DNA of 64,000 nucleotides from Nannocystis sp. SCPEA4 (GTDB lineage: Bacteria; Myxococcota_A; Polyangia; Nannocystales; Nannocystaceae): the NCBI RefSeq assembly GCF_026626685.1, contig NZ_JAPNJX010000021.1, positions 233,329 through 297,328 on the forward strand. Reading direction: 5' to 3'. The notes beneath the pieces are model-generated. The model ran no database searches. It saw nothing but the letters and a program-made list of their open reading frames with translations, and was not told the DNA's origin. Shown piece after piece: positions 27,001-58,425 of the stretch; position 1 is the stretch's first letter; the number at the start of each line of letters is the position of its first letter. The position numbers and the translations under genes are program-made.

Positions 27001-27713
27001 CCTGGATCGAGGCCGAGACCGACAAGGACACCCTGCTGTGGAAGGTCTGGACCGAGCTCGGGACCCAGCTCCCGGCTCAGGGCGTGCGCCTCGCCGACAT
27101 CGCGCTGATCCCCGACGGCAAGGTCGACGGCGGCTGGGTCAACGTCTCCGCCGTGCATTCGCCGGTGATCCTCGTCGGCCCCGCGGCGCGCGCCGAGACC
27201 ACCGCCCCGCGCCTGCGCTTCGCCCTCGGCCGCGCGCTGTTCTTCACCCGTCCGGCCGCGATCCTGGTCGCCGGCCTGCCGAGGCCGATCTTCGCCGGCG
27301 TCCTCGCGGCCGCGCTGCAGGCCTTCCACCCGCGCCACACCCGGCGCGTGCGGGGCCGCGACGAGGCCGACCTGGCCGCGCGGCTCGGCCAGACCCTCGC
27401 GCGCAAGCTGCCGATCCGGCTCGCGCGCCAGCTCAGCACCCAGTTCAAGGAGCGCGAGCAGGAGGGCTTCGACAGCCGCGACTGGCGCGCGTGGGTCCAG
27501 CGCTCCGGCGATCGCGTCGGCCTGTGCCTGTCGCGCAACCTCGGCGCCGCCCTCGACATCCTCGGCCTGCCCCAAGAGCCAGGTGAACGCAGCGCCGCCC
27601 TCAAGGCCCGCGCCGCCCACGACGGCGACCTCCGCGACCTGCTGGTGTTCGCCGTCAGCCCGGCCTACGTCGCGGCCCGGCGCGGCCTCGGCTTCGAGGT
27701 CAAGACCCGCTGA
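18048..27713 (+). CDS. Giant tetratricopeptide-repeat (TPR) protein, 3221 aa, with a central Pro-rich and acidic-repeat linker. The start may instead be ATG 18087.
   Basis: ORF track. It has TPR-like helical repeats throughout, the recurrent 'YERTG'-type motif, and host-like GC3 codon usage. Confidence 0.85.
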   Translation: MVPWAAPLAAPRPMPETAVAPKRQPSPHDLPCPLPPVAPGEPPELAAFRAKPSDDAFLRLRRAFREAENWSGLATLLVVHAAAITGPPKVGELCVQAYELWYDRVKDKPQAAYALVRALQAEPHNHRAFELLRKVYQEIGALDELATLLKFRLDHLRRNDRGAVPAALVELGKVDEQRCQVDEAIACYRAALDINHGERDAAEQLIRLHLQAGAWLRVIDLINAELARTDAVRERERFAALHLRLARIEAEQLENIPSAALHLQAALKANPDDVAALRAFGALYLGSGKASDEGLQKAADVFFRAAKLARSQGDDKIAYNLLRRAMSLRPDHHEAGNALAELLMAQEKWMELDDLYGAWIGYVTEADSYGLWLSRGELLETRLARREEARACYEQASRLERPGGDAWLRLEALLVELGDNHALVGLYERWSEQDPSSLSTDKLLWAARVAREDLGDEERAAVAFYRVLEREPFNHEAFEGYKEHWRRKNNWSHLAGLILYQVDQALQMGGGPDSPLARSEFAEHFVELAEIYERRLGDLAGALDAWNRLALAYPNDWRPRDQIARIDKRARMLDANLATLEAELQRTVDPQRRFEVLRRLSQAHRERMTDPQRTIVLLQEMLALAPGHEGALRALAEMYERTGAYDQVIDLLRRQHDVTRSISQRVVLLRRMAELWQHELHSPREALWACEQILGYSPSDLDAVHRMQGLSSELGDAGGEYEALSRELQLVGEPAQRTRIIRRMADVADRKLQDPQRSAQAWTQLQAADPHNLEVTDKLIAAYEALGNREELANLLGKAASSARTPAIRQLDYLMRLGHVAEASLGDADLACSAFERALRIHRDHRGATEALTRLYRNLGSWHGLAASLGTLQEMADSDEEALGIGWERAEILADRLDNPAAAIRVLEQLASTSAVGHRDVALKLLELYERAGQYDRLIRQAEVLLLSALETDERRELFSLIARNYVVNLNQPQKAIAAFQRFMREEPDDSEGLKVLGELQTMAGDHQATLDTLAKRLESLTDAAQQVVTLEQMAEVCEYGLGHAKRALALLGRALGIAPGSRDLKTKIEAFAERHGMYKDLLVVYGERFTEMSGRAESRGQIDLCLGASATAEKKIGDADLAFAWARKAYFVALRAGLDAGPVLDRLEGLAQAHGLWPQMLEVSEQELAFQEKTPNYGDFGTIALLMSAAEIARERLGDPARSIGYLQRAYKLRPDDEDLGRQIEALAEAHKMWQALIDLHEARLARAKTGLGRFDPCTAIAKIYERHLDDPRRAFQWLRRAENDLRPADPSLAEEAAGLMTELAQRHQLWPELADHHRGLALAKLQRSERGGLNQLKDSARIDYEKRQDPLAALRTLRLGVAYDRDGAALMPAIEAMAAKVDENRSPDTPPTGALTLLSVTQQIIGQTVDPALKLQLLKRRAELRAGLGDTAGAIAEWLRALSLHPGSEEARFELDRLAERDNLWHLLLLAPAAELHFGTGKAQQGKLLTQIAELYENCLGRPEYALRARIAAWKLHGDLPPEKGELGPTHAKMWHLAGLTGTYLTPQPVRDPLLWPQIAPPELADRDQWRKLGLDPDTLAPRIAKKVRSKEESSVVELDDIEEVSRPTTEILLSELEPLGDFRRGGAEVVARPGKGVASDTHTNIVDIAELEPIEASVATTTKIRPARPARGETDIVDIAELEPVEASVSVSVRAAGLARQDSGVFDLADLEPIEDSLVGPAPKRPGGETSGVLDLDEMLELDDDVPRPTSAKPSLPRPAAKPLKTAPPRPPGGKPVAKAPPPTRRPAAPPPPSRPPAAPEPVPAASLPPPPPVASRELIDAVTAGLPPLPELDAPVLPARPSASSAWHELAHAYASVVPASKSERAGLQRLLARLWDEGAGMPEAAIERLEEALALVPDDQTALAGLVDLSEKAGDPERLIAALSRLLGDLTLPEHIVAYHLRLADLYEQTGQPERAEEQYRGVLAVSAKHLPALRSLAALHAKTGREREAAEASARLYDAEADGLTLEERIPRVLQLARDLAYRADRSLEAIRRLDALVKETPETADVHAELIEILQREGLWVRAVEALRWAAEVVPNPDARVRCLARAALLTEERLGQIDAAIATWSEVLVLHPDDPDALARLQNLYLRSEQYAKLLPVLDRRLAQVAPGDRDARIALLVVKARALQEGQGDEIAALETLETLAAEAPENDDVVLGLSRLYRKGGRLDDGIEMLRRRLAEIMSDMEARLEPVEDEPLPFDIPEPVSPALAARRLRVAEALATALAEEAGDPRGALETLDEALAAAPPEAALGLQQRRVALARALGDDRVLAVSLAAVGEPDGILEAAAIARDRLREPELAAQLFTRVLSELAPGAPQRSRRLSQAIEGLVGLRLAAGDLDGADALLDAQLAQIDDPEIRARILTESGRALLRGGQDFARARRRFEAALAVDPDHAPARLALGSALIDAGLHAEAEAALEAAVEAFGLTRDQPRLVEGLLLLAHLFERTDRANEAYRRLSMALRHVPDDLEIRAAMAHNRAAAGRHRDAVAALEPVEQRLAAGTPIPAERAPVVADLLILAAECDAKQNAPAERLAARYARALELAPRHRKARAALAQLAQESGRLVDAAEHTLALADLETDPEARGRALLGAGMLFHEAAGAAAEAGEETVASSSAQKILAAAFEAVQAGLALIQDIPHPVVERRQLEAAFWTAVPRNAAIALGCLDRLLHHPDLREAKRAAFLLEGVRIALQRGEPGDPARALGYARAAALLLPDAAGPIHALVDALRAAGNDDEIEPAVRAFLGREALQQPPGDLREARDRQRLLVWLSDLVLQADPPADPADSRPAQAIRLLERAAELDPAGLGLVPRRQLARLYADAKIQGPQVRSNSDALLHLDPLDEASLAALARHCAETGERDRAHAIHQLLRIVSPGHAEAGAFLSSNELVSVRSGKLDPATVLDAAPADAGVVPAMTALWEGAAELLAEELPRPQFSEAAWIEAETDKDTLLWKVWTELGTQLPAQGVRLADIALIPDGKVDGGWVNVSAVHSPVILVGPAARAETTAPRLRFALGRALFFTRPAAILVAGLPRPIFAGVLAAALQAFHPRHTRRVRGRDEADLAARLGQTLARKLPIRLARQLSTQFKEREQEGFDSRDWRAWVQRSGDRVGLCLSRNLGAALDILGLPQEPGERSAALKARAAHDGDLRDLLVFAVSPAYVAARRGLGFEVKTR

Positions 27714-44653: not shown

Positions 44654-46555
44654 TCACGGCCCCGCGTCTTCGGCCGCGCTCTGTCGCGACGACAGCACCG
44701 CCGCCCGCGAGCGCGCCGCCCAGTCGAGCAAATCGCTCTCACACGCCCGCGCCCACTCCGCCCGCACGGCAGCCACGTCCCTCGTCTCGCCCGGATCGTC
44801 GACCACGTCGAACACGCGCACCAGCCCGCGCTCCGGCTCGACGATGCACTTCCAGCGGCCCGTCCGCAGCCCCAGGAGCACGCTGTTGTAGTCGCTGAAG
44901 AAGCGGGCCACCCCCGGCGCCGGCGTCAACAGCGAGCGTCCGGTCCACGACGCCGGGGCCGGCACGTCGAGCAGCGCCGCGATCGTCGGCGCCACGTCGA
45001 TCGCCCCCGCCACCTGCGGCGCGCGGACCGACGAGGCGAACGCTCGCGGCGGCACGATCACCAGCGGCACGTGCACGTTCTCCTCGTAGACGAACAACGA
45101 ATGGGCGAAGTTGCCCGGGTGTTGCTGAAAAGCCTCGCCGTGGTCGCCCTGGATCACCCACAGCACGTCGTCCAGCCGCCCGCGATCCGCCAGCCCGTCG
45201 ATCAGGCGCCCGAGCGCCTCGTCGCCGGCGAACAGGTCGTTGCGGTAATGGTCGAGGTCCGTCTCGGCCGCGAACGGCCGCGTCCCCGCGCCCGGGCTGC
45301 GGTACGGGTGATGGCCCGCGATCGGCATGTACAGCGCGAAGAACGGCTGCTGCGGTGATTCGTCGATCCACCGCAGCAAGCGCGTCGCCGTCGCCGCGTC
45401 GTCGGTGCCGAAGCTGACCGCGTGCTCGCCCCCGATCGTCTGCGCGTCGTGCAGCGCCGCCAGGCCGCGCTCTGCGATCATGTGGCGCATCCCGAGGTAC
45501 ACGAACCGGCCCGAGTGGAACAGCCCCGTGCGGTAGCCCTGCTCCTGCAGCAGCTGCGGCAGCGGCTCGCACGGCGCCTTCCCGGCCGCGTAGTCGGCCG
45601 CCGCGGTGTCCGGCGCCGGCGCGCGCCCGCACAGCAATGCGTACAGGCTCTTGATGCTCTCGGGGTAGCTCGTGTACGCCGATTCGAACACCACCCCACC
45701 GCGTGCGAGCCGCGTCAGCCGCGGCGTCGCCTCGACCTCCGCCCCGTGGAGCGTCAGGTAGCGCGCCCCCGTCGATTCCAGCACCACCCAGATCACGTCG
45801 CGCCCGCGCGCCGCGCCCGCCAGGTGCGTCAGATCGATCGCCAGGCCCTCCGCCGGCACCGTCACTATCTGTCCCTTCGAACCTGACCTTTCAGTCATTC
45901 GTGCCAGGCGCGTCGTCACCAGCGCCGCGATCGCGTTGCGGTGCAGCCCCAGCGTCTCGCAGCGGCGCGCTCCCGCCGGCCCGAGCGCGATCACCAGCGC
46001 CGCCGCGATCGCCAGCGCCCGCACGCGCCGGGGCGGCCGGCGCACCAGCCACGGCAGCGCCGCCGCCCACGCCAGCGTCACCAGCACCGCCGCCACGTTG
46101 CCGGGCGTCACGTATGCCGCGATCGAGTCCCCCAGCGCCCCGCCGGTCGCCTCGACGAACGCCCACGTCAGCGGCGTCCCGAACTGCCGCGCGATCGGCA
46201 CGTTGGCCGCCATGTACAGCGCCGCCGCGGCGTAGATCGCCCACCCGGCCCGCTGCGCGCCCGCGCGGGTCAGCCCGAAGTCGAGCGCCAGCGCGCCGAG
46301 GGCCACCCACACCTCCTGGTAGAGCAGCGCCGGCACGGCCCACGGAGTCGCCAGGCCCGCGGCCACCCCGTCGAGCGCGCGCAGGGCCACCAGCACCAGC
46401 TTCGCGCCCGCCCCCGCGAGCAGCAGGCACAGCGCGCGGCGGAGCGACGGCACGGCCGACCCTACCACGTCGAGCCCGCGCAGCAGCGCCCCGCGCGGCC
46501 ACGCCCTCGGCGGCCCCCCGACGAGGTCCTCGCGCGGCAGTTGCCCCCCGGGCAT
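44654..46555 (-). CDS. Sulfatase-family membrane protein (LTA synthase/phosphotransferase-like) with an N-terminal multi-TM domain. The start is ambiguous: 46555 or 46606.
   Basis: ORF 44654..46714. The alkaline-phosphatase-superfamily motifs are 'VIWVVLESTGARY', 'GHHPY' and 'VIQGDHGEAF'. Confidence 0.7.
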   Translation of the reverse strand: MPGGQLPREDLVGGPPRAWPRGALLRGLDVVGSAVPSLRRALCLLLAGAGAKLVLVALRALDGVAAGLATPWAVPALLYQEVWVALGALALDFGLTRAGAQRAGWAIYAAAALYMAANVPIARQFGTPLTWAFVEATGGALGDSIAAYVTPGNVAAVLVTLAWAAALPWLVRRPPRRVRALAIAAALVIALGPAGARRCETLGLHRNAIAALVTTRLARMTERSGSKGQIVTVPAEGLAIDLTHLAGAARGRDVIWVVLESTGARYLTLHGAEVEATPRLTRLARGGVVFESAYTSYPESIKSLYALLCGRAPAPDTAAADYAAGKAPCEPLPQLLQEQGYRTGLFHSGRFVYLGMRHMIAERGLAALHDAQTIGGEHAVSFGTDDAATATRLLRWIDESPQQPFFALYMPIAGHHPYRSPGAGTRPFAAETDLDHYRNDLFAGDEALGRLIDGLADRGRLDDVLWVIQGDHGEAFQQHPGNFAHSLFVYEENVHVPLVIVPPRAFASSVRAPQVAGAIDVAPTIAALLDVPAPASWTGRSLLTPAPGVARFFSDYNSVLLGLRTGRWKCIVEPERGLVRVFDVVDDPGETRDVAAVRAEWARACESDLLDWAARSRAAVLSSRQSAAEDAGP

Positions 46556-46577
46556 CCTCGGTTCGGAGGTGTGGGCG

Positions 46578-47570
46578 ATGCGAGGCACGACGGCGGCGAT
46601 CGGCATCTTCACCACGGCGCTCGCGGGCGCCTGTCTGTTCCACGACGATCCCACCGATCCCACGACCTCGACCGGCAGCACCAGCGGCACCACCACCGAC
46701 GACACTCCGACCACCGGCGCCGATCAGTGTCCCAACAATTGCCCGCTCCCCGGGCCCTGCCGGCAGATCACCTGCACCGACGGCGCCTGCGGCGTCGCCG
46801 ACCTGCCCGCGGGGACAGTCTGGCCCGGCACCGTCGGTGATTGTCGGCAGGACGTGTGCGACGGCAAGGGCGGCCTGCAGAGCGAGCTGGCCGACGATCC
46901 GCCGCCGCAGGTGCCTGGCGACTGCGAGCGCTACGTGTGCGACGCCGGCGACGTCGTCACCATGCTCGACGCCTCCGACGTCCCCGACGACGCCAACGAT
47001 TGCACCGACGACACCTGCGAGGGCGCCACGCCGCTCAACACCCCCAGGCCGATGCACACCGCCTGCGGCCCCGGCCTGAGCCAGTTCTGCCACACCGACG
47101 CCGCCTGCCGCCCGTGCAAGCAGGTCACCGACGCCTGCGAGGATTACGGCGCCGAGCCGCACGACAATCAGGAGACCGCCCTCGACCTCGGCACGATCAG
47201 CGACAACGACGGCGACGGCTCGTTCGCCTGCGGCACGATCAAGGGCGCCAACGACGTCGACTGGTTCACCTTCGCCGGCGACGACGCCTTCCTCAACTAC
47301 GTCGACCCGGTGCGCAGCCTCGTCACCCAGAATGGCGGCGGCGGTCGGGTCTGCGTCTACCTGCAGTGCAACGGCGGCGGCACCAGCATCAATTGCGGCA
47401 GCGCCACCGACGACATCGCCCCGCTGGGCCAGAAAGGCTGCTGCAGCGCCAGCAGCGTGGCCCCCAAGCTCAACTGCGACGGCCTCGACGACAGCGCCAA
47501 GATCTGGATCCGCGTCGACACCCCGCAGGACCTCGCCTGCGTGCCGTACCAGCTCGACTATCACTTCTGA
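46578..47570 (+). CDS. Cys-rich secreted lipoprotein with a C-terminal pre-peptidase C-terminal (PPC)-like domain.
   Basis: ORF 46569..47570 with ATG 46578, lipobox 'ALAGAC'. 'DNDGDGSFACGTIKGANDVDWFTFAG' fits the PPC pattern. Confidence 0.6.
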   Translation: MRGTTAAIGIFTTALAGACLFHDDPTDPTTSTGSTSGTTTDDTPTTGADQCPNNCPLPGPCRQITCTDGACGVADLPAGTVWPGTVGDCRQDVCDGKGGLQSELADDPPPQVPGDCERYVCDAGDVVTMLDASDVPDDANDCTDDTCEGATPLNTPRPMHTACGPGLSQFCHTDAACRPCKQVTDACEDYGAEPHDNQETALDLGTISDNDGDGSFACGTIKGANDVDWFTFAGDDAFLNYVDPVRSLVTQNGGGGRVCVYLQCNGGGTSINCGSATDDIAPLGQKGCCSASSVAPKLNCDGLDDSAKIWIRVDTPQDLACVPYQLDYHF

Positions 47571-47728
47571 GCGCGCACCCGCGCTCCTGCGAACCGGACC
47601 GTTCGGTCCGCAGGGGTCCCGCGGCCGGAATGTTTCACGCGAACACGAACACCCCCATCACTCCCGAGCGGTCGCGCGATGCAGCGAGCGGCTCCCGCCT
47701 GCCGCGGCGACGCGCTACGCTCGTCCGC

Positions 47729-48238
47729 ATGCCTAACATTACACCTGCACGCCTCTCGCTCGTCCTGGCCGCTCTGCTCGCCTGCAAGCCCGGCACGGGC
47801 GACACCGCCAGCGACACCGACCCCTCGACCGGCAGCACCGCCACCGAGGGCAATACCTCGACCGGCGACCCGGCGACCTCGACCTCCACGAGCGAAGGCG
47901 CGAGTACGACCGCCGAGCCGACCACGAATGCCACCACCGACCACGGCACCACCAGCACCGGCGTGGTCTCGTGCGGCGGCGGCTGGTGTGCGGCCAAGGA
48001 CTCGCTCAACATCATCATCAAGGACAACCACGAGCCCCCGCACGAGCTCGTGATCCCCGCCTTCGACGCCGACGCCTGCGTCGAGCGCACCTACGAGTTC
48101 ACGGGCGCCGCCGATCACACGCACACCGTGACCTTCACGCCGACCGACTTCGCCATCATCGACGCGGGCGGCCAGATCGAGATCGAGTCGAGCGAGGCGG
48201 AGGGCCACACGCACCTCGTCTGGAGCGACTGCGAATGA
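47729..48238 (+). CDS. Small lipoprotein (hypothetical, 169 aa).
   Basis: ATG 47729 sits in the frame of ORF 46841..48238, 'MPNITPARLSLVLAALLAC'. Confidence 0.6.
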   Translation: MPNITPARLSLVLAALLACKPGTGDTASDTDPSTGSTATEGNTSTGDPATSTSTSEGASTTAEPTTNATTDHGTTSTGVVSCGGGWCAAKDSLNIIIKDNHEPPHELVIPAFDADACVERTYEFTGAADHTHTVTFTPTDFAIIDAGGQIEIESSEAEGHTHLVWSDCE

Positions 48239-48397
48239 CGGCAGCGCGCTCCTGCCGTCATTCGTGAACGACGCGCGGCGGGGCCCGGCCACCACGGCGC
48301 ACCTCACTGCGCTCGAACTCCCGGCCGCACGAGCGAGATTCGGCGCACCCGCGCGCCTTGACAACTGTGGGCACAGTTCGGTCTCCTGCCGTCCACC

Positions 48398-50086
48398 ATG
48401 CGCGCGCCGAACGTCCCATTGTGCGACCTCCTGCTCACCGTCTCGCTCGTCGCGGCGTGCGGCGACGGCAGCGCCGGCAGCACGTCGACCGCCGGGACCG
48501 CGAGCACCACCGACTCGGCCACCACCGACTCGGCCACCACCGATTCGGACACGGCGACGCCGACCACCACGTCGTCCGCCGCGACCACGGCCGAGCCGCC
48601 CACCACCACCGCGACCACGACGTCCACCGACGGCACCGCGACCACGGACGCGAGCACCGGCGAAACCACCGGCGCTCCCATCGACGCCACGCCGTGCTGG
48701 CCGTTCGACGCCCCACCGCTGAGCGAGCTGCGCGACTCGCCGAAGAAGGTGTTCGCGCATTACTTCTCGCCCTACCCGCTGTCCCTCGACAACAAGGATC
48801 CCGCCGAGGATTACTACGCCAAGAACTACCTGCGGCCCGAGGGCGAGAACGGCAAGTTCGCCTACTGCGGCGGCTTCATCAAGGAGCGCCCGCTCCCGCA
48901 GCCGCCGCGGCCGCAGGACGTCGACTACGAGCTGGCCAACTTCGAGCAGGAGGTCCGCCGCGCCGTCGCGCTCGGGCTCGACGGCTTCACCTACGACATC
49001 CTCAACACCAGCGGCACCCACTGGGACCGCCTGCTCAAGCTGCTCGACGCCAGCAGCAACGCCGACCCCGACTTCCGCATCGTCCTCATGCCCGACATGA
49101 CCTCGACCTACGAGGGCAGCGACATGGAGGCCCAGGTCGCCTTCGTCGCCTCGATCGCCGAGGTCGCCGCGCACCCCGCGGTGTTCCGCGCCGAGGGCGG
49201 CGAGCTGCTGCTCGCCCCGTTCGCCGCCGACAAGCGCAGCCCCGCGTGGTGGGCGTCGACGATCGACGCCCTCGCCGCCGAGGGCATCGACGCCGTGCTG
49301 TGGCCGGTGTTCGTGTCGCCGTGGAGCGCCGCGACCACGAGCTTCCAGGCCGAGCTGCCGCTCGTCGGCACCTCGTCGTGGGGCCCCGCCACGGTCTCCG
49401 GCGCGACCGGCTACGCCAGCAACGCCGAACAGGCCCACGCGCTCGGCGTGAAGTGGATGTCGCCGGTGCGCCCGCAGGACTCGCGGCCGAAGGACCTCAT
49501 CTTCAGCGAGGCCGGCAACACGCAGACCATGCGCCTGCTGTGGGACGCCGCCGTCGACGGCGACGCCGAATGGGTGCAGCTCATCACCTGGAACGACTAC
49601 TCCGAGGCCTCCGAGGTCTCGCCGTCGAGCGGCACGCAATGGGCCCTGTTCGACCTGACCGCCTATTACGTCACCTGGTTCAAGACCGGCCAGCAGCCGC
49701 CGATCGTCCGCGACGCCCTCTATTATTCACACCGCCTGCAGGCGACCACCGCCATGCCCGATCTATCGCAGCAGGAGTCGGTCTACGAGGCGGTCAACGG
49801 CGGCGAGCCACTCGACGAGATCGAGCTGCTCGCGTTCCTGACGGCCCCCGCGACCCTCGAGATCGAGGTCGGCGGCGAGGTCCAGACCACCGCGGCGGAG
49901 GCCGGGATCCAGTCGTTCCGCGTCCCGCTGGTCGAGGGCACGCCGAGCTTCCGCGTCGTCCGCGACGGCGAGACCGTGGCCGAGGCCGTGAGCGCCTTCT
50001 CGATCGACAACACCATCGTCTATCAGGACATGCTCTACCGCTCGGGCGGCAGCCTGCCCTGCGACCGCAGCCCGCTCATGCAGTAG
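48398..50086 (+). CDS. Glycoside hydrolase family 71-like (α-1,3-glucanase/mutanase-like) lipoprotein with a Thr-rich linker.
   Basis: Lipobox 'LVAAC'. 'KKVFAHYFSPYP', 'LGLDGFTYDILN' and 'RIVLMPDMTS' resemble GH71 motifs. Confidence 0.6.
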   Translation: MRAPNVPLCDLLLTVSLVAACGDGSAGSTSTAGTASTTDSATTDSATTDSDTATPTTTSSAATTAEPPTTTATTTSTDGTATTDASTGETTGAPIDATPCWPFDAPPLSELRDSPKKVFAHYFSPYPLSLDNKDPAEDYYAKNYLRPEGENGKFAYCGGFIKERPLPQPPRPQDVDYELANFEQEVRRAVALGLDGFTYDILNTSGTHWDRLLKLLDASSNADPDFRIVLMPDMTSTYEGSDMEAQVAFVASIAEVAAHPAVFRAEGGELLLAPFAADKRSPAWWASTIDALAAEGIDAVLWPVFVSPWSAATTSFQAELPLVGTSSWGPATVSGATGYASNAEQAHALGVKWMSPVRPQDSRPKDLIFSEAGNTQTMRLLWDAAVDGDAEWVQLITWNDYSEASEVSPSSGTQWALFDLTAYYVTWFKTGQQPPIVRDALYYSHRLQATTAMPDLSQQESVYEAVNGGEPLDEIELLAFLTAPATLEIEVGGEVQTTAAEAGIQSFRVPLVEGTPSFRVVRDGETVAEAVSAFSIDNTIVYQDMLYRSGGSLPCDRSPLMQ

Positions 50087-50089
50087 CGG

Positions 50090-50557
50090 TCATTCGTAGC
50101 CGTACGGCGTCAACGCGGCGTCGATGAGGACATTCAGCTTGTTGGCCGGATCGACGCGCACGTCGATCTGGGTGTCGGGCTGGACCCGCGGGATCGCCAG
50201 CTTCGACACCAGGCTGGTGACCTGCACGCGATAGGGCTCCTGACCCGGCAGCGTCACCTCGAGGTCGAAGTCGATGTTGGGGTGACCATTGATGCCCCCC
50301 CCCTTCGTGCCGATCGTGACGATGCGGGCGCGCCCCGGCGTCCCGCCCTGCCACACGCGCAGCCGCTCGGCGTTGCGGGCCGAGCTCGCGCGCGCCTTGA
50401 TGGTGAGCGCGCCCACGGCGGTGACGACGAACAGCACCACCGCCCCGCCGATCATGAACGTGTTCTTGGTGAAGATCCCCGCCAGCACCAGGACCCAGAA
50501 GAGCGTCCCGGGGATGAAGAGGAGCGCGAGCCCGGGGTTCGTGGACGTGCCGGTCAT
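50090..50557 (-). CDS. Small membrane protein (2 TM) at the distal end of the vgrG operon.
   Basis: ORF 50090..50602 trimmed to ATG 50557, 'LALLFIPGTLFWVLVLAGIF'. Confidence 0.5.
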   Translation of the reverse strand: MTGTSTNPGLALLFIPGTLFWVLVLAGIFTKNTFMIGGAVVLFVVTAVGALTIKARASSARNAERLRVWQGGTPGRARIVTIGTKGGGINGHPNIDFDLEVTLPGQEPYRVQVTSLVSKLAIPRVQPDTQIDVRVDPANKLNVLIDAALTPYGYE

Positions 50558-50611
50558 CGCCGGCGAGTATCGCACAAACTCCGCGCCCCGGGCCGCGCGC
50601 ATCCTGCTTCG

Positions 50612-51007
50612 TCAGGGCGCCAGCACCAGCACCTTGACCTGGCTCGGCACCACGCGCACGCCCGGGCAGTTGGTCGAGTTCTGCAGCGCCATGCTGGTCA
50701 CGCGCGTCACCGGCAGGCCGCCGACGAGGCACGTGAAGGCGCCCGTCAAGTGACGCGACGGGCCCATCACCGTGCCCGAGGCGACGCCCGTGGCGAGGCC
50801 CGCGTTGTCGCCATTGGTCATCGGGATCGTCGTGGCCATGTTGTGCGCCGGGGCGCACATGAACAGCACGTTGTAGACGGCGGGCACGCCCATCGGCCCG
50901 GCGGTGATGTTCGGGTACGGGACCGGCACCGGCCCGGCCGGCGAGGGTGTCAGGCAGACATCGGGGAAGCCGGTGTCGACGCCCATCATCTGTGTATTGG
51001 CGAACAT
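50612..51007 (-). CDS. DUF4150 (PAAR-like) domain protein, a 131-aa minimal form with no C-terminal toxin extension.
   Basis: 'FPDVCLTPSPAGPVPVPYPNIT' is the DUF4150 hallmark. Confidence 0.75.
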   Translation of the reverse strand: MFANTQMMGVDTGFPDVCLTPSPAGPVPVPYPNITAGPMGVPAVYNVLFMCAPAHNMATTIPMTNGDNAGLATGVASGTVMGPSRHLTGAFTCLVGGLPVTRVTSMALQNSTNCPGVRVVPSQVKVLVLAP

Positions 51008-51023
51008 GAAGGCTCCTGTCGTT

Positions 51024-51680
51024 CTAGCCGAGGTGGATCTGGCCGCCGTCGATCTTGACCAGTTCGGCGCCGGTGACGAGCGCGTGCTCGGCCCCGATCT
51101 GGGCGCTGCACGTCGCGCGGTAATCGATGGTGCCGGCCTTGACCTGATCGATCTGCTCGACGGTGCGCTGCGAGATCTTGCTGTGCTGGCTGATCCGGTC
51201 GGCGAGAGTCTCGACCACCTTGCCGACCACCGTCACCTTGCTCGCGTGGGTGAACAGCGTGCGCAGCACCGACGAGCACTCGTCGAGCACCACCCGCGCG
51301 AGCCGGCCGCGCGCGCGCAGCTCGTCGGCCTGCAGCTCGAGCTGCGCATCGGCGCGGAGCGTCAGCCGGGCCGCCTCCACCCGCAGCTCCGGCGCCCCCG
51401 CGACGCCGATCCGGGCCGCCTCGTCGCTCTCGCGCTCGAGCACCGCCGTGACGAAGCTGCGCTGCTGCCCGGGCGCGCCGGCCTCGACCACGAACCACAC
51501 GCGATCGCCCACCTCGGGCGCGAGCAGGCAGCTGGCCGCCCGGCGTGCGCTCCACGGCTCGCCGCCCGGCTCCTCGCTCAGCACGATCGACTGTTCGCGC
51601 AGCTCGCGGACGATCGCGCTGCCCTGATGCGCGGGCGCGGTCGCGGGGACACGGAGACGCTGGAGATCGTGGACTTGCAT
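51024..51680 (-). CDS. DUF3540-like T6SS-associated hypothetical protein.
   Basis: It sits between the pentapeptide and DUF4150 genes, as in known DUF2169/pentapeptide/DUF3540/DUF4150 modules. This is an inference from context and from family recall. Confidence 0.5.
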   Translation of the reverse strand: MQVHDLQRLRVPATAPAHQGSAIVRELREQSIVLSEEPGGEPWSARRAASCLLAPEVGDRVWFVVEAGAPGQQRSFVTAVLERESDEAARIGVAGAPELRVEAARLTLRADAQLELQADELRARGRLARVVLDECSSVLRTLFTHASKVTVVGKVVETLADRISQHSKISQRTVEQIDQVKAGTIDYRATCSAQIGAEHALVTGAELVKIDGGQIHLG

Positions 51681-51683
51681 TCG

Positions 51684-52793
51684 CTACTCCTTGGGAGGGG
51701 GCATGGTCGGGCGCCAGCCCTGGGCGGCGGCCAGCTCGGGGTCGGTCCCGAGGGTGACGGCGCGGTTCGGGATCTTCGCCCCCTCGTCCGCGACGGCGTG
51801 GAGGTTGGCGCGGAACATCGAGGCGCCGGTGAAATCGGCGCCGGCGACGATCGCCTGCGAGAAGTCGGCGTAGACCAGGTCGGCCCCGCGGAACGTCGCC
51901 TCGCGACAATTCGCCCGGTGCAAGATGCACTGATACATCGTCGCCCCGGCGCATTGGGCCCGCTCGAGCTGGGCGTCGACGAAGATCGCCTGCGTGAGCT
52001 CGGCTCCCTGCAGATCGGCGCCACGCAGGTCGGCCTCGACGAACAGCGCGTTCGTCAGCCGCGCCCGCCCCGCTTTCAGCTTCGCCAGCTTCGCGCCCTT
52101 GAAGTTGCAGTTGCGCAGATCGGCGCCGCTCAGGTCGCAGCCCTCGAGCGCCGCGTCGGTGAATTGCGTGAACGGGAAGCGCATGCCGGCAAGGCGCATG
52201 CCCGACAGCGTGGCCTTGATCAGCGTGCAGCGCTCGAGCTCCGCGCCCTCGATCAGCGTCGTCCGCAGATCGGTCGCCAGCAACGTCACCGAGTCGAGCC
52301 GGCACGACCGCAGGTCGGCGCCGGCCAGCTCGCACTCGAGGAACGCGCAGCGCACCAGCTTGGCCCCGCCCAGGCGCGCCCGGTCGAGTCGACACTTGAC
52401 GAATGACGACACCCGCAGGTCGGCGTCGCCCAGATCGATCTCCGTCGCCACCAGCTCGTGCACCTTGGCGCCGGTCAGCGTCGCCCCGCGCAAGCTGGCG
52501 CCGACGAGGCTGCATTGGCTCAGCACCGCCTGATGCAGGTTGGCGCCGACGAGGCTGGCGCCGTCGAGGCGACACTCGGTCAGGCACGCCTCGCGCAGAT
52601 CGGCCCCGTCGAGCGTGCTCCCGGAGAAATCGACCTCGTGGAAGATCGCGCCGCCGAGCTTGACCCCGCGCAGGTCTCGCTGCGACAGATCGATCTTCCG
52701 CAGCTCGCGACCCTCGTGCACCTGCCGCGCCAGCTCGTCGGCGTCGGCCGGCGGCCGCCACTGCGTCGGGTCGTCCATGCGCAGCGACGTCAT
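51684..52793 (-). CDS. Pentapeptide-repeat protein.
   Basis: Long runs of A(D/N)LxG-type pentapeptide repeats. Its start overlaps the upstream stop (ATGA). Confidence 0.8.
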   Translation of the reverse strand: MTSLRMDDPTQWRPPADADELARQVHEGRELRKIDLSQRDLRGVKLGGAIFHEVDFSGSTLDGADLREACLTECRLDGASLVGANLHQAVLSQCSLVGASLRGATLTGAKVHELVATEIDLGDADLRVSSFVKCRLDRARLGGAKLVRCAFLECELAGADLRSCRLDSVTLLATDLRTTLIEGAELERCTLIKATLSGMRLAGMRFPFTQFTDAALEGCDLSGADLRNCNFKGAKLAKLKAGRARLTNALFVEADLRGADLQGAELTQAIFVDAQLERAQCAGATMYQCILHRANCREATFRGADLVYADFSQAIVAGADFTGASMFRANLHAVADEGAKIPNRAVTLGTDPELAAAQGWRPTMPPPKE

Positions 52794-55513
52794 CGGCGGC
52801 GCTCCTCCCGGGGCTGCTCGACGTGCTTCGGGTGCACGCGGACCTTCGTCATCAACGCCTGGTCGAGCCGCAGCTTGTCATCGGTGCGCACGCGGGCCAT
52901 GTCGGCGCCGTGGAGGTTGGCGCCGCGCAGATCGGCGCCGTAGAGGGCCGCACGCGCCAGGCTCGCGCCCATGAGGTTGGCCGCCAGCAGCTCGGCGCCG
53001 CGCAGGTCGGCGACCTCGAAGCGAGCCTCGCGGGCGCTCGCCTGGTACAGCCGCGCCCCGGCCAGGTCGCACTCGCTGAGGTCGGCGCCGTCGAGCAGCG
53101 CCTTGCGCAGGTTGGCCGCGGCGAGCGAGGTGCCGCGCAGGTTGGCCCGCTTCAGCGTGGCGCCGCCGAAGTCGGCCCGGTCGAGCGCGCAGCCGCCGAC
53201 GAAGCGCGACTGCTCGAGGTTTGCGCCGGTGAATTCGACGCCCTCGGCGTCGCACTCGAGGAACGTGCACGACTGGAGCCCCGCCTGGGCGAACCGGGCC
53301 CCGCGCAGCCGCAGCTTGATGAAGGCCGAGCCGGCCAGCCGCGCCCCGCCGAAGTCGACGCTGACGATCGTCATCTCGAGGAAGTTGAGCTTCTCGCCCA
53401 CCATGCCGCGCGCGTCGACCTCGCACAGGTACGCGCCCATCCACGTCGCCCCGGTGGCGCAGGCGCGCTGCAGGTCGGCGCCGTCGAACCGGGCCTCGGT
53501 CAGGATCGCGTCGCGCAGGTCGGCGTCGGCGAGCACGGTGCGCGTCAGCCTGGCCTTGCCGAGGTTCGCGCGCTGCAGACAGGCGCCGTCGAGCCGCGTG
53601 TCGGTCAGATCGGCGTGGGCCAGGACCACGCGGTTCAGTTTGCAATCGCGCAAATCGGTGCCCTTCAGGTTCGCGCTTTCGAAAAGCCCGCCCGTCAGGT
53701 CGGCGCCGCGCAGGTCCATGCCTGCCAGGTCGGCCCCGGTGAAGTTGAGGGTCGAGAGGTCCTCCTTCTGCTCCAGCGCCAGGCGCAGCCGTTCGCGGGT
53801 CGGCTCGCGCCACTCCGGCGTCATCGCCGGGGCCGGGTGCTGAACATGAGCGACGAGCCGGTAGCTCTCGCGCATGTTGTGCTCGGTCTCCTGCCACTGC
53901 GCGTAGAGGGCCTTGTCGACGATCATGTCCTCGATCTCGTCGACGATGGTGTCGCGGCGCCGGCAATCGACGGCGATCGCCACCAGCGCCGCGTGCGTCG
54001 CCGCGGCGGTGAACGTCGGCGGCCCGACCTGCTTGGCGTCGATCTCCGCGCGCAGCGATTTGCCGTCGAAGCCCGGGATGTTGGCCGCGTCGGCGTCGCG
54101 CTCGGCCTCGGCCAGCTTGGCCGCGTAGGTGGCCTCGTACTCGGCCTGCTTCTTCTTGCAGTCGGCCTGGATCCTGGCGATGAGGTCCGGCAGCTCGTGC
54201 AGCTTCGGCGGCGGCGGCTGCGGCGGCGGAATCTCGGGGCCGTGCACATCGGGATCGAGGCCGTAGCTGGCGACGATGTCGCGCGCCTTCTGCGACTCGG
54301 CGACCATGCGCCGGTGCAGGTTCTGCTGGGTCAGGCCCTCGACCTGGCTGAGCTGCTCGTCCTCGTCGGGCGGCTGGTCGGGCAGCAGCGCCAGCTCTTC
54401 GGGCAGCAGCTCGCCGTCCATCAGCGCCGCGAGCGTGCCCCACTCCGGATCGAGGCGGGCGGCGAGCGTGGTCACGTAGTGCTCGAGCGGCTTGGCGCGC
54501 CCCTCGTGCTCGCCGGCGACCATCAAGTGCACGACGTCGGCGCCGTCCTCCTCGGCCACGTGCACCTGACCCTGCCACACGAGCACCGCTCGCTCGGCCT
54601 CGGGGAAGAACCACAAGGTCTGCAGCGCCAGCTCGACCTCGTCGATCGCCGCGGGCGCCTGCCTCGCCGCCTTCTTCACCGCCGCGAAGCTCGCTCGCGG
54701 CTCGCCGGGCGCGTGCGAGCGGCTGATGAACGCGCGGGCGCGGACCTTCGGCAGCGCGCCCGCGATCATCCGGCCGGGGTGCATGTTGTCGAAGCGATAC
54801 GGCTCTCGGCCGGTCCAGAAGCCCTCGACCTGCTGATCGCGCGCGGCGATGTTGTGAAGGCCCCAGTCGATGTCGCGGGCGAAGCCCGGCATGAGGTTCT
54901 CGAGCCAGTCCTGATCGTAGGTGCCGGCCAGCGCGGCCCGCTGCGGCCAGGTGATGTCGATCGGCCCGAAGCCGATCGGCTCGGGTCGGTCGCGCGGCGA
55001 ACCGATCCGCTGCAGCGGCGACTCGAGGTTCGGCAGCGGCCGCACCTTGGCCCCGCCGGCCTCGACCTCGGCGTGCCCCTTGCCGAGCGGGTTGTATGGA
55101 AACTCGGGGCCGCCGAACGCGCGGGTCCAATCGAGCGGCATCTCGGTGATCGGCGCCGGCGACGTCATGGTCGAGCCGCGCCAGCTGCGATCGCCGAACA
55201 CCTCGACGGTCTTCTTCAGCGCGCCGACCTGCGCCGAGGCCGAGAACCTCGGTTGGGCCGCGCCGCCCGGCGCGTACGCCTTGCCGATCACCAGGTACTC
55301 GCCGCGGCGCTTGGGGATCCCGACGTCGAGCGACCCGCCGCCGAGCTGCTTGGCGGCGAACTTCCACATGTCGACCTCGCTCAGCAGGATCGGCGCCGGC
55401 GCGTCCAGCCCGAGCGGGATGAACGCCAGCACCGACACGCCCATGTAGTAGCGCCGCTCGTGCTCGTAGCAGCGGGTCAGCACGCCGAGTTTGCCGGGCT
55501 TGACGACGCGCAT
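52790..55513 (-). CDS. DUF2169-domain protein (T6SS effector-loading adaptor family) fused to C-terminal pentapeptide repeats, 907 aa.
   Basis: The N-terminus 'MRVVKPGKLGVLTRCYEHERRYYMGVSVLAFIPL...SEVDMW' fits the DUF2169 pattern. The C-terminal ~330 aa are pentapeptide repeats. It starts 3 bp after the vgrG stop. Confidence 0.75.
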   Translation of the reverse strand: MRVVKPGKLGVLTRCYEHERRYYMGVSVLAFIPLGLDAPAPILLSEVDMWKFAAKQLGGGSLDVGIPKRRGEYLVIGKAYAPGGAAQPRFSASAQVGALKKTVEVFGDRSWRGSTMTSPAPITEMPLDWTRAFGGPEFPYNPLGKGHAEVEAGGAKVRPLPNLESPLQRIGSPRDRPEPIGFGPIDITWPQRAALAGTYDQDWLENLMPGFARDIDWGLHNIAARDQQVEGFWTGREPYRFDNMHPGRMIAGALPKVRARAFISRSHAPGEPRASFAAVKKAARQAPAAIDEVELALQTLWFFPEAERAVLVWQGQVHVAEEDGADVVHLMVAGEHEGRAKPLEHYVTTLAARLDPEWGTLAALMDGELLPEELALLPDQPPDEDEQLSQVEGLTQQNLHRRMVAESQKARDIVASYGLDPDVHGPEIPPPQPPPPKLHELPDLIARIQADCKKKQAEYEATYAAKLAEAERDADAANIPGFDGKSLRAEIDAKQVGPPTFTAAATHAALVAIAVDCRRRDTIVDEIEDMIVDKALYAQWQETEHNMRESYRLVAHVQHPAPAMTPEWREPTRERLRLALEQKEDLSTLNFTGADLAGMDLRGADLTGGLFESANLKGTDLRDCKLNRVVLAHADLTDTRLDGACLQRANLGKARLTRTVLADADLRDAILTEARFDGADLQRACATGATWMGAYLCEVDARGMVGEKLNFLEMTIVSVDFGGARLAGSAFIKLRLRGARFAQAGLQSCTFLECDAEGVEFTGANLEQSRFVGGCALDRADFGGATLKRANLRGTSLAAANLRKALLDGADLSECDLAGARLYQASAREARFEVADLRGAELLAANLMGASLARAALYGADLRGANLHGADMARVRTDDKLRLDQALMTKVRVHPKHVEQPREERRR

Positions 55514-55516
55514 GGG

Positions 55517-57745
55517 CTACAGAATCGACAGGAGGCCGAAGGTGTGCAGGCTGGCGTAGCCCTGCATCAGCGCCGCGCCGACGGACTTCACGTCGGCGCC
55601 GTCGTGCGAGAACGAGGCGGTCTTGTACTCGATGGCCATGCCGACGTGCTCGAGCTTGATGTTCGTGTGCGCCATCGAGATCCCGATCATCTCGAGCTTG
55701 ATCCCCGTGATCCCGAGCGCCCACGCGAACGCGTCGCCCTGGCCGCCGCCGAACTTCCAGAAGTCCTGATCGATGGTCTTGGTCCCGCCGGGCGCGATGA
55801 CGGTGAAGCCGGCCGGCGCGATCATCTTGATCCCGCCGGTCGCGGTCATCGTCACGCCGCCGACCGCGGTCACGTCGTAGGTCGACGGCGTGGTGACGGT
55901 GACCCCGCCGGTGATCGTCTGCGACAGCGAGCCGGTGATCGACTCGGTCACGCTGCCGGTGATCGTGCGCGTGACGCTGCCGCCGATCGTCTCGCTCTGG
56001 TCGCTGGAGATGTTGCGCGTCTCGCTGGCCGAGAACGTCTCCTCGACCGCGCCGGTGACCGTGCGCGTCTCGGTCCCGTCGATGGTCTCGGTGAAGTTGC
56101 CCTTGACATGCATCGTCCGGTCGGCGCCGACGGTGGTGGACTGGTTGCTGCCGATCGTGATCGTCTCGTCGCAGCCGACGTCCTCGGTGTGATTGTTGAG
56201 CACCACCTCGTCGAGGTCGCGCTGCGCGTGGAGGAAGACCTGCTCGGCGCCCTTGTTGTCCTCGAAGCGCAGCTCGTTGAAGCCGCCGCCGCCGCGCGAC
56301 GACTCCGACTTGATCGTCGACTTCGTCTTGTCCTCGGGCAGCGGGTACGGCGGCAGGTTCTGGCCGGTGTAGACGCGCCCGGTGATCACCGGTCGGTCGG
56401 GGTCGCCCTCGATGAAGTCGATCAGCACCTCGTGGCCGATCCGCGGGATGAACATCGCGCCCCAGCCGTTGCCCGCCCACATCTGGCTGACGCGGACCCA
56501 GCACGAGCTGGTCTCGTTGAACGGCTCGTCGCGGTCCCAGTGGAACTGCACCTTCACGCGCCCGTGCTCGTCGGTGTACACGTCCTCGCCCTCGGGGCCG
56601 ACCACCGTCGCGGTCTGCAGCCCGCGCATCACCGGCCGCGGGGTCGACTGCGCCGGCCGGAACGGCGCGTCGAGCTCGGTGACGGTGAAGCTGTTCTCGT
56701 AGTGGAACGCGCCCGACGCGTCCTGCTCGAGCGCCTGCGGCTGCTGCCCGGTGTGCTTGACCTGGAGGATCCGGTACGACGCGTCGAGCTCCACGCGCGG
56801 GTGGCCGACCAGCGACAGCGTGTGCCCCGCGGTCAGCCGCGGCGAATCGCTGGTGGCCGAGCCGACCCGGCGGTGAGCCTCGTGGGCCTCCAGCCGCAGC
56901 TTGGCCAGCGTCTGCCCCTGGTGCGGCCCTGCCCGGCCCGGGTCCTGATATTCGCCGGGGTATGTATAGACCTCGAGGTCGGTGTGCCGCTTGCCGAGCT
57001 TGCGCACCTCCATGGGCTCGCTCGGCTTGTGAAGGTTGTAGTCGCGCAGCGTGACCGCCCCCGGACGGATCCGCTCGCCGAAGCGGAAGCTGTGGATCGC
57101 CTCGCTCTGGCTGACCTCGCCGTCGGGCGGCCGGAACCACACGCTCGGGTCACCCGGGATCGGCGGGTGTGCGCCCGCGTGGTCGGCGAACACGAGGGTG
57201 TGCGCGTCCTTGGCGTGCTCGAAGAAGAAGAAGATCCCGTCCTCCTCGAGCAATCGGCACAGGAACGTCAGGTCGTCCTCCTGGTATTGCACGCAGTAGT
57301 TGCGGGGCGCGTACGTCTCGATCAGGCTGAAGCGGAACCCGTCGCTCTCGATCCCGGCGTCCTTCAGGACCTTGCGGGCGATGTCCGGCGTGGTCATGTC
57401 CTGGAAGATCCGGCTGTTGCGGCGGAACTGCAGGCGCCACAGCGCCGGCACGATCAGCGCCTCGTACAGCTGCAGCTCGCGCGTGTGACCGACGTAGTCG
57501 AACGAGGCGCAGATGCCCGAGAGATAGCGCGGGGTGTCGATGCCGGCGATCTCCAGGGTCATCGGCGCGTCGATCACCCCGGCGAGGTCGACCTCGGGCC
57601 CTGCCAGCTCGACGCTGACCTCGAACAGGCTCGACAATCCCTCCGTGGCGGTGAACCGGACGACGCGGAGCTCCTTGCCTGCCGTCGTCAGCGTAAACAG
57701 CGGATGGTTGCCCAGGAGCGCCTTCAACGTCGACAGGTGACTCAT
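55517..57745 (-). CDS. vgrG: Type VI secretion system spike protein VgrG.
   Basis: ORF 55517..57796 trimmed to ATG 57745. It has VgrG N-terminal gp27-like and gp5-like regions, 'MSHLSTLKALLGNHPLFTLTTAGKELRVVRFTATEGLSSLFEVSVEL'. Confidence 0.85.
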   Translation of the reverse strand: MSHLSTLKALLGNHPLFTLTTAGKELRVVRFTATEGLSSLFEVSVELAGPEVDLAGVIDAPMTLEIAGIDTPRYLSGICASFDYVGHTRELQLYEALIVPALWRLQFRRNSRIFQDMTTPDIARKVLKDAGIESDGFRFSLIETYAPRNYCVQYQEDDLTFLCRLLEEDGIFFFFEHAKDAHTLVFADHAGAHPPIPGDPSVWFRPPDGEVSQSEAIHSFRFGERIRPGAVTLRDYNLHKPSEPMEVRKLGKRHTDLEVYTYPGEYQDPGRAGPHQGQTLAKLRLEAHEAHRRVGSATSDSPRLTAGHTLSLVGHPRVELDASYRILQVKHTGQQPQALEQDASGAFHYENSFTVTELDAPFRPAQSTPRPVMRGLQTATVVGPEGEDVYTDEHGRVKVQFHWDRDEPFNETSSCWVRVSQMWAGNGWGAMFIPRIGHEVLIDFIEGDPDRPVITGRVYTGQNLPPYPLPEDKTKSTIKSESSRGGGGFNELRFEDNKGAEQVFLHAQRDLDEVVLNNHTEDVGCDETITIGSNQSTTVGADRTMHVKGNFTETIDGTETRTVTGAVEETFSASETRNISSDQSETIGGSVTRTITGSVTESITGSLSQTITGGVTVTTPSTYDVTAVGGVTMTATGGIKMIAPAGFTVIAPGGTKTIDQDFWKFGGGQGDAFAWALGITGIKLEMIGISMAHTNIKLEHVGMAIEYKTASFSHDGADVKSVGAALMQGYASLHTFGLLSIL

Positions 57746-58370
57746 CGTCCTCCTCGGCCAGCACCATACAACGAGCCGGGTCTCCCCTGCGAACAATCTC
57801 TCACCGCTGTCTCACCGGCGATTTTCGCCCATACGCCGCTTTCGGCGCAGGCCGGTTCCGAGCGCATCACCGACGCTTGCGCGCAGACTGGACGTCCGCG
57901 CCGGATCGGCGGGCACGAGCATTCGCCGAGGCCGCGGCGACGAGCGACAATCGCGGCCACCGTGACTCGCGCCAGGGTCTCCTCACCACATTTGAGGTAT
58001 GGCGTCCGCATGACGCCCTGCGCGCAATCACGGCCCCCTGCCCGGCCTTGGGCGGCTTCGCCCTCGTCCTCTGAACTCGAGTTCGCCGCGGTGAATGCAC
58101 GCGGCCCGCGGGCCGGCAGCCGTCCATTCGCGGCAGGTCGCGCTGTATGGCCTTTCTGCGGTCGCAACATCGCGGTCCGGCGAATGAGCGTGGTCGGCGC
58201 GACAGTCCGCGCGGGAGAATTGGCCGGGACCACTGCGCCGCTCGGGCAGCGACGAGCGGTTCCCGTGAACCATCAGTGATCGGCGCTCGCGGTTCAATTG
58301 CCCGCTGGCGAAAAAATTGTGCGAGCGGCCCGGCAGGCGCGGGCATCGCGCGCCTCGGCGAGCTCCTCTT

Positions 58371-58425
58371 TAAGACATGCCCTGGCGGACATGTTCTTGC
58401 GAGCATGTCGTCACGGACATGCTCG
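58371..58425. promoter_or_regulatory. Four tandem GACATG-core repeats with 14-15 bp spacing in the ~715-bp leader upstream of vgrG.
   Basis: gACATGccctggcgGACATGttcttgcgagCATGTCgtcacgGACATGctc. It is related to motifs at 4848, 5999 and 63053. Confidence 0.45.

Follow-up and report, generated by a model that had tools for sequence, protein, structure and literature searches.

What is the role of a vgrG-led operon that encodes no recognisable toxin domain and stands apart from type VI secretion system (T6SS) core genes? The question is raised by a stretch of 64,000 nucleotides from Nannocystis sp. SCPEA4 (contig NZ_JAPNJX010000021.1; ~70% G+C; hereafter 'the window'), in which six co-directional minus-strand genes occupy positions 50090–57745. 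A preliminary reading of this DNA, made from the letters and open reading frames (ORFs) alone, took the island for an auxiliary spike module built around VgrG and located apart from any core T6SS cluster, and our analysis supports that view. Beyond this, we consider it very probable, by comparison with annotated and characterised clusters, that the region is a Class III Tvp module, that is, the arrangement also known as DUF2169 synteny type C and as tagAB–tagB–tagC–tagD in Burkholderia, and that it would serve as a spike-building kit for a Nannocystis T6SS. Genes were called with a codon-position G+C filter together with the ORF list, and domains were assigned with Pfam. The operon and its upstream region are made up as follows.

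55517–57745, minus strand: vgrG, 742 aa; Pfam Phage_GPD (2.9e-89), Phage_base_V and Gp5_trimer_C; TIGR03361 at 627 bits.
52790–55513, minus strand: tvpAB/tagAB homologue, 907 aa; DUF2169 (1e-77, aa 22–313) and pentapeptide repeats at ~aa 575–880.
51684–52793, minus strand: tvpB/tagB homologue, 369 aa; Pfam Pentapeptide (4.7e-57).
51024–51680, minus strand: tvpC/tagC homologue, 218 aa; DUF3540 (1.4e-40).
50612–51007, minus strand: paar1/tagD homologue, 131 aa; Tox-PAAR-like/DUF4150 (3.3e-37), without extension.
50090–50557, minus strand: gene for a small membrane protein, 155 aa from M16 (the ORF, 170 aa, reaches 50602); two hydrophobic helices, no Pfam match.
57746–58460, minus strand: upstream intergenic region of 715 nt, presumed promoter region, with inverted and direct repeats.

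The six genes are compactly arranged, with intergenic distances of 3–16 nt or an overlap of 4 nt: vgrG is separated from tvpAB on the same strand by 3 nt, the start of tvpB overlaps the stop of tvpAB by 4 nt, and the small membrane protein gene follows paar on the same strand after 9 nt. G+C at third codon positions (GC3) is 0.89–0.96 in five of the six, while the PAAR-like gene failed the codon-position filter, and a ribosome-binding site, GAGGAGGACG, lies 5′ of the vgrG ATG at 57745. All six ORFs are found at the coordinates given in the sequence-only reading, so that its six-gene operon structure stands, and its assignments of VgrG, DUF2169, pentapeptide, DUF3540 and DUF4150 domains are all far over the Pfam cut-offs, including those of DUF2169, DUF3540 and DUF4150, for which it had named failed profile support as grounds for abandoning the idea. 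The operon stops at 50090, where it meets a convergent GH71 gene on the plus strand (48398–50086), and the large minus-strand ORFs further down are therefore not operon genes. These ORFs (47561–49639 and 45891–47564) were considered as downstream effectors and rejected, as they have no Pfam match and GC3 favours the plus-strand genes opposite them, namely the GH71 gene and ORF 46323–47570.

The assignment to Class III rests first on gene order. A tblastn search with TvpAB on plasmid records recovered full-length homologues in annotated clusters, with Burkholderia TagAB-5 among the matches, and the order of genes in the window is the same as in the annotated clusters of Burkholderia savannae, Enterobacter cloacae pIMI-6, Escherichia albertii and Variovorax paradoxus. 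Specifically, in B. savannae tssI and the genes for TagAB-5, TagB-5, DUF3540 and DUF4150 proteins are located between tssH and tssJ, and in E. cloacae pIMI-6 and E. albertii pEA5_1 the same block comes after tssH and tssI; each window protein matches its positional counterpart in the Burkholderia, Enterobacter, E. albertii and Variovorax clusters. The arrangement is thus already described, and the earlier interpretation of it is out of date: the DUF2169–pentapeptide fusion, then thought to be undescribed, corresponds to Burkholderia TagA/B-5 (PMC6335564), named 'type VI secretion system accessory protein TagAB-5' by NCBI, and to the multidomain DUF2169 protein of synteny type C, in which it is followed by a pentapeptide gene, DUF3540 and a DUF4150 'PIPY' gene and which comprises ~37% of DUF2169 genes (Sachar 2025, PMC11883445).

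The individual chaperone-like proteins agree with this placement. TvpAB (DUF2169 at 261.9 bits, Pentapeptide at 154 bits) begins with the DUF2169 domain, the PAAR chaperone, which a helical linker joins to ~300 aa of pentapeptide repeats; for the DUF2169 domain there is a match to a solved structure of that family, 8vth (E 6.5e-14), and by blastp the protein aligns over its full length with the DUF2169–pentapeptide-repeat (PPR) proteins of Enterobacter, E. albertii and Variovorax at 33–36% identity (E 1e-145 to 1e-157). TvpB is a stand-alone pentapeptide-repeat protein (189.5 bits) and a paralogue of the C-terminal part of TvpAB (~31% identity to TvpAB aa 567–872; 31% over aa 595–872, E 6e-27); in comparison with Burkholderia TagB-5 its identity is ~33%, and with the proteins in the same position in Enterobacter and Variovorax ~34%. 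Against NCBIfam, the pentapeptide proteins stay below every cut-off (HetL 120–149 bits with a cut-off of 260, PipB2 95–114 with 354, Qnr 75–92 with 240), scores that we read as generic repeat similarity.

TvpC belongs to the long DUF3540 type, not to DUF6484 (139.8 bits, cut-off 27.9), has 29–34% identity to its positional counterparts, and shares PF12059 with all of its homologues (102/102). An AlphaFold monomer model built with 72 homologues has a confident OB fold at aa 18–110, with phage and contractile injection system spike proteins among its structural neighbours, and TvpC is a predicted trimeric mimic of VgrG that would template a pre-complex. In the same 72 homologues, K209, H216 and G218 of the TvpC C-terminus, ELVKIDGGQIHLG (51024–51059), are invariant. 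This end closely resembles the last residues of B. savannae VgrG-5, SVKIDGQLIQLG (L005 7940–7975), a likeness that fits TvpC as a mimic of the PAAR-binding tip of VgrG. The PAAR-like protein matches Tox-PAAR-like with 127.3 bits over aa 10–116 of 131, carries a PIPY-type motif in the form PVPY (aa 28–31), and has 64–69% identity to the enterobacterial and Variovorax proteins and 100% to that of Nannocystis radixulma. The sequence-only reading found it unusual that this protein is bare; that impression does not hold, since Burkholderia TagD-5 also has no effector domains (PMC6335564) and the PAAR-like proteins of all five clusters compared are 130–131 aa long. A bare PAAR protein is the normal state for Class III.

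The VgrG protein is well over the TIGR03361 cut-off of 186 bits, and Pseudomonas aeruginosa VgrG1 (PDB 4mtk) aligns to its aa 29–640, leaving ~100 further residues; aa 30–729 align with the 744-aa Class III-linked VgrG of E. albertii to within a few residues of its end. No effector domain was recognised in it by Pfam; the extended C-terminal region is putatively beta-prism-like, and the last 26 aa are 69% non-polar, a tail that is kept in metagenomic orthologues. For Serratia VgrG1, it has been suggested that the hydrophobic last 26 residues may act as a cryptic peptide (PMC13373197); the hydrophobic tail and ~100-residue extension of the window VgrG would be compatible with that idea, a fit that proves nothing. 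The C-terminal end of the window VgrG, ASLHTFGLLSIL, differs from that of Burkholderia VgrG-5, with a His retained at a similar distance from the end. In the closest metagenomic relative (L001 329–5044) vgrG is present as two paralogues in tandem (750 and 752 aa), whose C-terminal tails are near-identical, and a single tvpAB–tvpB–tvpC–paar–small gene set lies downstream of both.

How such a set might work has been studied in Serratia marcescens Db10, whose Class III Tvp system consists of VgrG1, TvpAB, TvpB, TvpC and Paar1 (Monlezun, Earl and Coulthurst, EMBO J 2026, PMC13373197). There, tvpAB, tvpB, tvpC and paar1 are each needed for VgrG1-dependent killing and for Hcp secretion with VgrG1 as the sole spike, a TvpC–Paar1–TvpAB–TvpB pre-complex forms in which VgrG1 later takes the place of TvpC, and the authors propose that the complex occupies the baseplate cavity otherwise taken by effector domains (PMC13373197). 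By homology to these proteins, TvpC of the window would form a trimer amounting to a short VgrG-like stub of OB fold and beta-prism, on which the DUF4150 PAAR-like protein would dock; the DUF2169 domain of TvpAB would then cover the hydrophobic face of the PAAR protein, and the pentapeptide solenoids of TvpAB and TvpB would wrap and 'belt' the tip. The real VgrG would finally displace TvpC to give a secretion-competent spike acceptable to the T6SS baseplate, and the chaperones would stay inside the producer cell. From this wrap-and-replace mechanism it would follow that the pentapeptide proteins are assembly factors and space-fillers and unlikely to be cargo. In Serratia, toxicity of the VgrG1 pathway is membrane depolarisation; it could be assigned to no separate protein and co-purifies with VgrG1 (PMC13373197). 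Any toxicity of the Nannocystis module would by analogy most likely be tied to the spike itself, the alternative being Hcp-borne or distantly encoded effectors.

The last gene of the operon has no place in this scheme as published. The annotated homologue of its 170-aa ORF, a 100% identical hypothetical protein of Nannocystis sp. SCPEA4, begins at M16 and is 155 aa long, with two N-terminal transmembrane (TM) helices followed by a DUF3592-like beta domain of ~85 aa; an AlphaFold2 model (pLDDT 82) similarly has a helical hairpin and then a small beta domain, and a fold search with it gave nothing informative. The protein has no match in Pfam (E up to 0.01) or NCBIfam, and none of its 23 homologues (0/23) has a Pfam domain. 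With respect to DUF3592 itself (PF12158, gathering cut-off 25.3 bits), the window protein has no match, 11 of the 23 relatives match at E 0.025 or worse, and cluster-embedded homologues score 20–24 bits, under the cut-off; on these scores the protein is only 'DUF3592-like' and not a DUF3592 member. We also considered and rejected membership in the family of Vai1, the DUF3192 immunity protein that in Serratia is encoded between vgrG and tvpAB, where a second small gene, SMDB11_2246, has no detectable role (PMC13373197). DUF3192 is not among the weak matches of any of the 23 members, and Vai1 is encoded directly after vgrG and has one N-terminal TM helix and a periplasmic beta-rich body, whereas the window gene is last in its operon and its product has two helices. 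A basic stretch following helix 2 suggests that the beta domain is cytoplasmic in the window protein, which fits poorly with a Vai1-like periplasmic immunity role.

The family nevertheless recurs in modules of this kind. Close homologues follow the PAAR gene in two further metagenomic lineages (L001-3 and L006-8), and a family profile matches small ORFs between vgrG and tvpAB in a Nannocystaceae metagenome-assembled genome (MAG; L015, E 2e-12), in Pseudenhygromyxa (L076, E 5e-11) and in the betaproteobacterium Pigmentiphaga (L042, E 6e-9), each of these three homologues having one TM helix and a sub-threshold DUF3592 match. The profile is thus found in six Class III clusters (window/L014, L001, L006, L015, L076 and L042). 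Other close homologues stand alone, away from T6SS genes, in three unrelated neighbourhoods (L004/L077, L009/L010 and L078). Our literature search found nothing on DUF3592 with T6SS, the one match concerning a type VII secretion system context, and the small protein is the only part of the module not covered by the literature searched. It is possible, and this is the least certain step of our reading, that it is an immunity or accessory partner of the spike. We tentatively suggest that Class III has a recurrent sixth component that has so far gone unremarked, the DUF3592-like family, which may serve as immunity partner for spike-borne toxicity and so be a non-homologous analogue of Vai1.

Several other readings of the island have to be weighed against that of a working Class III kit. 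The sequence-only reading took the pentapeptide proteins as candidate cargo, and one can imagine the C-terminal part of TvpAB, TvpB or both being secreted and working inside target cells as mimics of DNA or as groove binders: the repeat family includes secreted type III secretion system effectors (PipB2) and DNA mimics (Qnr, MfpA), there is the weak NCBIfam similarity to PipB2 and Qnr, far under cut-off, and the operon has no classical toxin domain by Pfam. We regard this as highly improbable. The homologous Serratia TvpAB and TvpB, needed for assembly and firing of VgrG1 and for Hcp secretion by its pathway, have never been detected as secreted, nor have the Serratia chaperones in general (PMC13373197); B. 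pseudomallei TagA/B-5 (BPSS1504) is essential for Hcp-5 secretion and acts 'not as an effector protein' (PMC6335564); the PPR module is constant throughout Class III and does not behave as an exchangeable slot for cargo; and scores of ~75–149 bits compare with cut-offs of 240–354 for Qnr, PipB2 and HetL. Alternatively, the island might be a silent or decaying remnant in a host without a working T6SS. Pfam on the confident ORFs of the window (some short ORFs being unscanned) found no tss core gene, the other confident ORFs carrying unrelated domains or none, and tblastn with TssG/H/J/K/L gave no match there, which bears out the earlier statement that tssA–M core genes are absent from the window; a pattern scan likewise revealed no other VgrG locus in N. 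radixulma, and there is no consensus promoter upstream. Yet the six ORFs are intact and closely packed, with the high GC3 noted above in five, and the island, which has ~97% DNA identity to N. radixulma contig NZ_JAQNDN010000024.1, shows dN/dS of 0–0.13 for all six genes in that comparison, which indicates purifying selection and genes that are not decaying. Orthologous islands are kept in several Nannocystaceae lineages, a consensus sigma-70 scan is uninformative in a myxobacterium of 70% G+C, and T6SS genes have been reported in Nannocystis bins and Nannocystales, and a vgrG2-type cluster in Nannocystis exedens (PMC11821767, PMC10196010, PMC5801462). A remnant is, on balance, very unlikely. 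For a T6SS core in Nannocystis, support comes from the literature only, and some of our own results weigh against the Class III kit as we read it: the VgrG scan of N. radixulma contigs gave only the orthologous locus and no paralogue next to tss genes, and a TssK query from a Myxococcota MAG (L017) gave Gemmatimonadota-like relatives only and no Nannocystis protein. The beta-prism of TvpC is absent from the monomer model (pLDDT <50 at aa 139–172), the profile match of TvpC aa 47–91 to the VgrG OB region 426–469 is weak (E 0.08), and the identity of the chaperones to characterised systems is ~30–35%, where homologues from Enterobacter and Burkholderia stood in for the Serratia proteins themselves.

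For the small protein, too, the role of spike partner has competitors. As the product of the last gene, right after paar in a common effector position, it might be cargo on the bare PAAR protein, a membrane-inserting toxin; it is evolving faster than its operon neighbours (54% identity to its L001 homologue vs 65–88% for the other genes), and the depolarisation linked to VgrG1 in Serratia (PMC13373197) would suit such a toxin. We think this unlikely, however, because no candidate immunity gene is adjacent, the operon ending against the convergent GH71 gene, and because the stand-alone homologues (L004/L077, L009/L010, L078) lie in unrelated, syntenically conserved neighbourhoods with neither T6SS genes nor a partner. 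Moreover, elsewhere in Class III the homologue occupies the vgrG–tvpAB slot, which is the position of Serratia vai1, and by Pfam no Eag-type chaperone for the TM helices is seen in the operon. Of more weight, if still doubtful, is the idea that the protein is an unrelated DUF3592-like passenger and the module an alternative spike for Hcp-borne or distant effectors: about half of the sampled contexts of close homologues are non-T6SS, the Variovorax annotation shows nothing comparable either in the vgrG–tvpAB gap or behind the PAAR gene, and Serratia SMDB11_2246 sets a precedent for a small gene without detectable role (PMC13373197). Against a mere passenger speak the profile matches in six Class III clusters spanning Nannocystaceae and a betaproteobacterium, the location on the same strand as paar with a gap of 9 nt, and the dN/dS of 0.06 vs N. 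radixulma. We keep the spike partner, immunity or accessory, as our tentative reading of the small protein within a Class III kit.

The upstream region offers a few candidates for regulation. An 11-bp perfect inverted repeat, GCGAGCATGTC / GACATGCTCGC, with a 6-nt loop (58399–58426) is overlapped by a 21-nt direct repeat (CATG..N..GGACATG.TC) in two copies 28 nt apart, the whole region being 58376–58426. These repeats lie ~35 nt 3′ of the stop of an unrelated metallophosphoesterase gene and 5′ of the vgrG operon, and the inverted repeat could be a T-less terminator or a binding site for a regulator. The sigma-70 consensus scan found no site 5′ of vgrG, one site inside tvpAB and two weak terminator-like sites inside genes, a consensus that is uninformative at this G+C; a script search of the upstream intergenic region found no sigma-54 consensus, and no Rfam family was found in the region.

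Beyond N. radixulma, DUF3540 homologues occur across Myxococcota, in Enhygromyxa, Paraliomyxa, Pseudenhygromyxa, Polyangium, Sorangium and Sandaracinaceae. In N. radixulma an extra block of ~4.06 kb (L014 17665–21723) lies between the small gene and the GH71 gene, absent from the window at 50086–50090; strains thus differ by an indel immediately next to the island. The block codes, on the opposite strand, for a protein of ~1300 aa which, by a look at its sequence, resembles a Ser/Thr kinase with an NTPase-like region and a repeat-rich C-terminus; as an unrelated, apparently STAND-type Ser/Thr kinase on the opposite strand, it was rejected as an effector. One metagenomic Class III contig (L006 13620–15985) also has, at a distance of ~8 kb and on the other strand, two more DUF2169 genes (one coding for 404 aa, one cut by the locus end), and a single organism may thus hold two Tvp classes. 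In Pseudenhygromyxa sp. WMMC2535 the Class III block is followed by a gene for a 960-aa protein with N-terminal PARP-type zinc fingers (L076 11256–14138), and ~3 kb 5′ of vgrG (L076 1–61) is a 762-aa protein which weakly matches a phage-sheath C-terminal domain and may belong to another contractile system.

Elsewhere in the window are a continuous plus-strand ORF of 3223 aa (18042–27713, GC3 0.96), rich in tetratricopeptide repeats and with no catalytic domain detected, and, at 11156–12747 and 13842–15242, two adjacent minus-strand DUF2589 genes together with a nearby 466-aa protein whose C-terminus gives a weak, sub-cut-off match to SMI1_KNR4 (SUKH-1). A 940-aa protein (246–3068) in a stretch of 75% G+C where the window begins carries a JmjC/cupin domain (E 3.2e-15).

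The value of the locus is largely confirmatory: in a myxobacterium, a predatory or social organism, the full set of Class III Tvp genes forms an island of its own and is under purifying selection. The biology it adds is little, the components having been named in 2007 (the Burkholderia tag genes reportedly by Shalom), catalogued in 2025 and explained in their mechanism in 2026. A Class III kit in Nannocystis agrees with the published occurrence of TvpA in Myxococcota, listed in the 2026 paper (PMC13373197). What is mildly new is the small DUF3592-like membrane protein that recurrently accompanies Class III modules. If it were an immunity protein, it would offer a cross-phylum handle on how an effector-less VgrG–PAAR spike intoxicates cells, and 'the spike is the toxin' would hold for Class III systems generally, across phyla.

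Among known systems, synteny type C (Sachar et al., JBC 2025, PMC11883445) presents no architectural difference from the window: the order of DUF2169–PPR, PPR, DUF3540 and DUF4150 PIPY genes with vgrG upstream is the same, and PVPY is one version of its motif P(I/V)P(Y/F). The Burkholderia T6SS-5 set comprises vgrG-5, tagA/B-5, tagB-5, tagC-5 (DUF3540) and tagD-5, the last encoding a 130-aa PAAR-like protein without effector domain (PMC6335564, PMC13584744). Its gene order after vgrG is identical and the window proteins match the B. savannae orthologues, but the tag genes are part of the core cluster, with tssI on one side and tssJ on the other, VgrG-5 (994 aa in B. savannae) has at its C-terminus a fusogenic domain that is missing from the window VgrG, and identity is lower (27–40%), with blastp aligning only the PPR part of TagAB-5.

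Serratia marcescens Db10 has the same five protein types in the same order, a long VgrG (786 aa, 742 aa in the window) that lacks a toxin domain and whose C-terminal tail is mostly hydrophobic, and a small membrane-anchored protein with a beta-rich domain in the operon. In contrast, the Serratia module opens the main tss cluster whereas that of the window is not beside a tss core, and the window, in a host of another phylum, Myxococcota, has no vai1 (DUF3192) or SMDB11_2246-like genes between vgrG and tvpAB and instead has the DUF3592-like two-TM protein after the PAAR gene. The likeness to Serratia is moreover indirect, via the Enterobacter and E. albertii homologues (TvpAB/TvpB ~33–35%, TvpC ~29–31%, PAAR 69%). 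Nearest in setting is Variovorax paradoxus VAI-C (CP063167.1, L012), where the five-gene block is likewise flanked by metabolic genes with no tss genes in 7 kb on either side, although its VgrG is 982 aa long with a C-terminal extension and a helix-turn-helix regulator follows the PAAR gene; as the Variovorax island too lies away from a tss core, the window is not alone in its 'orphan island' layout.

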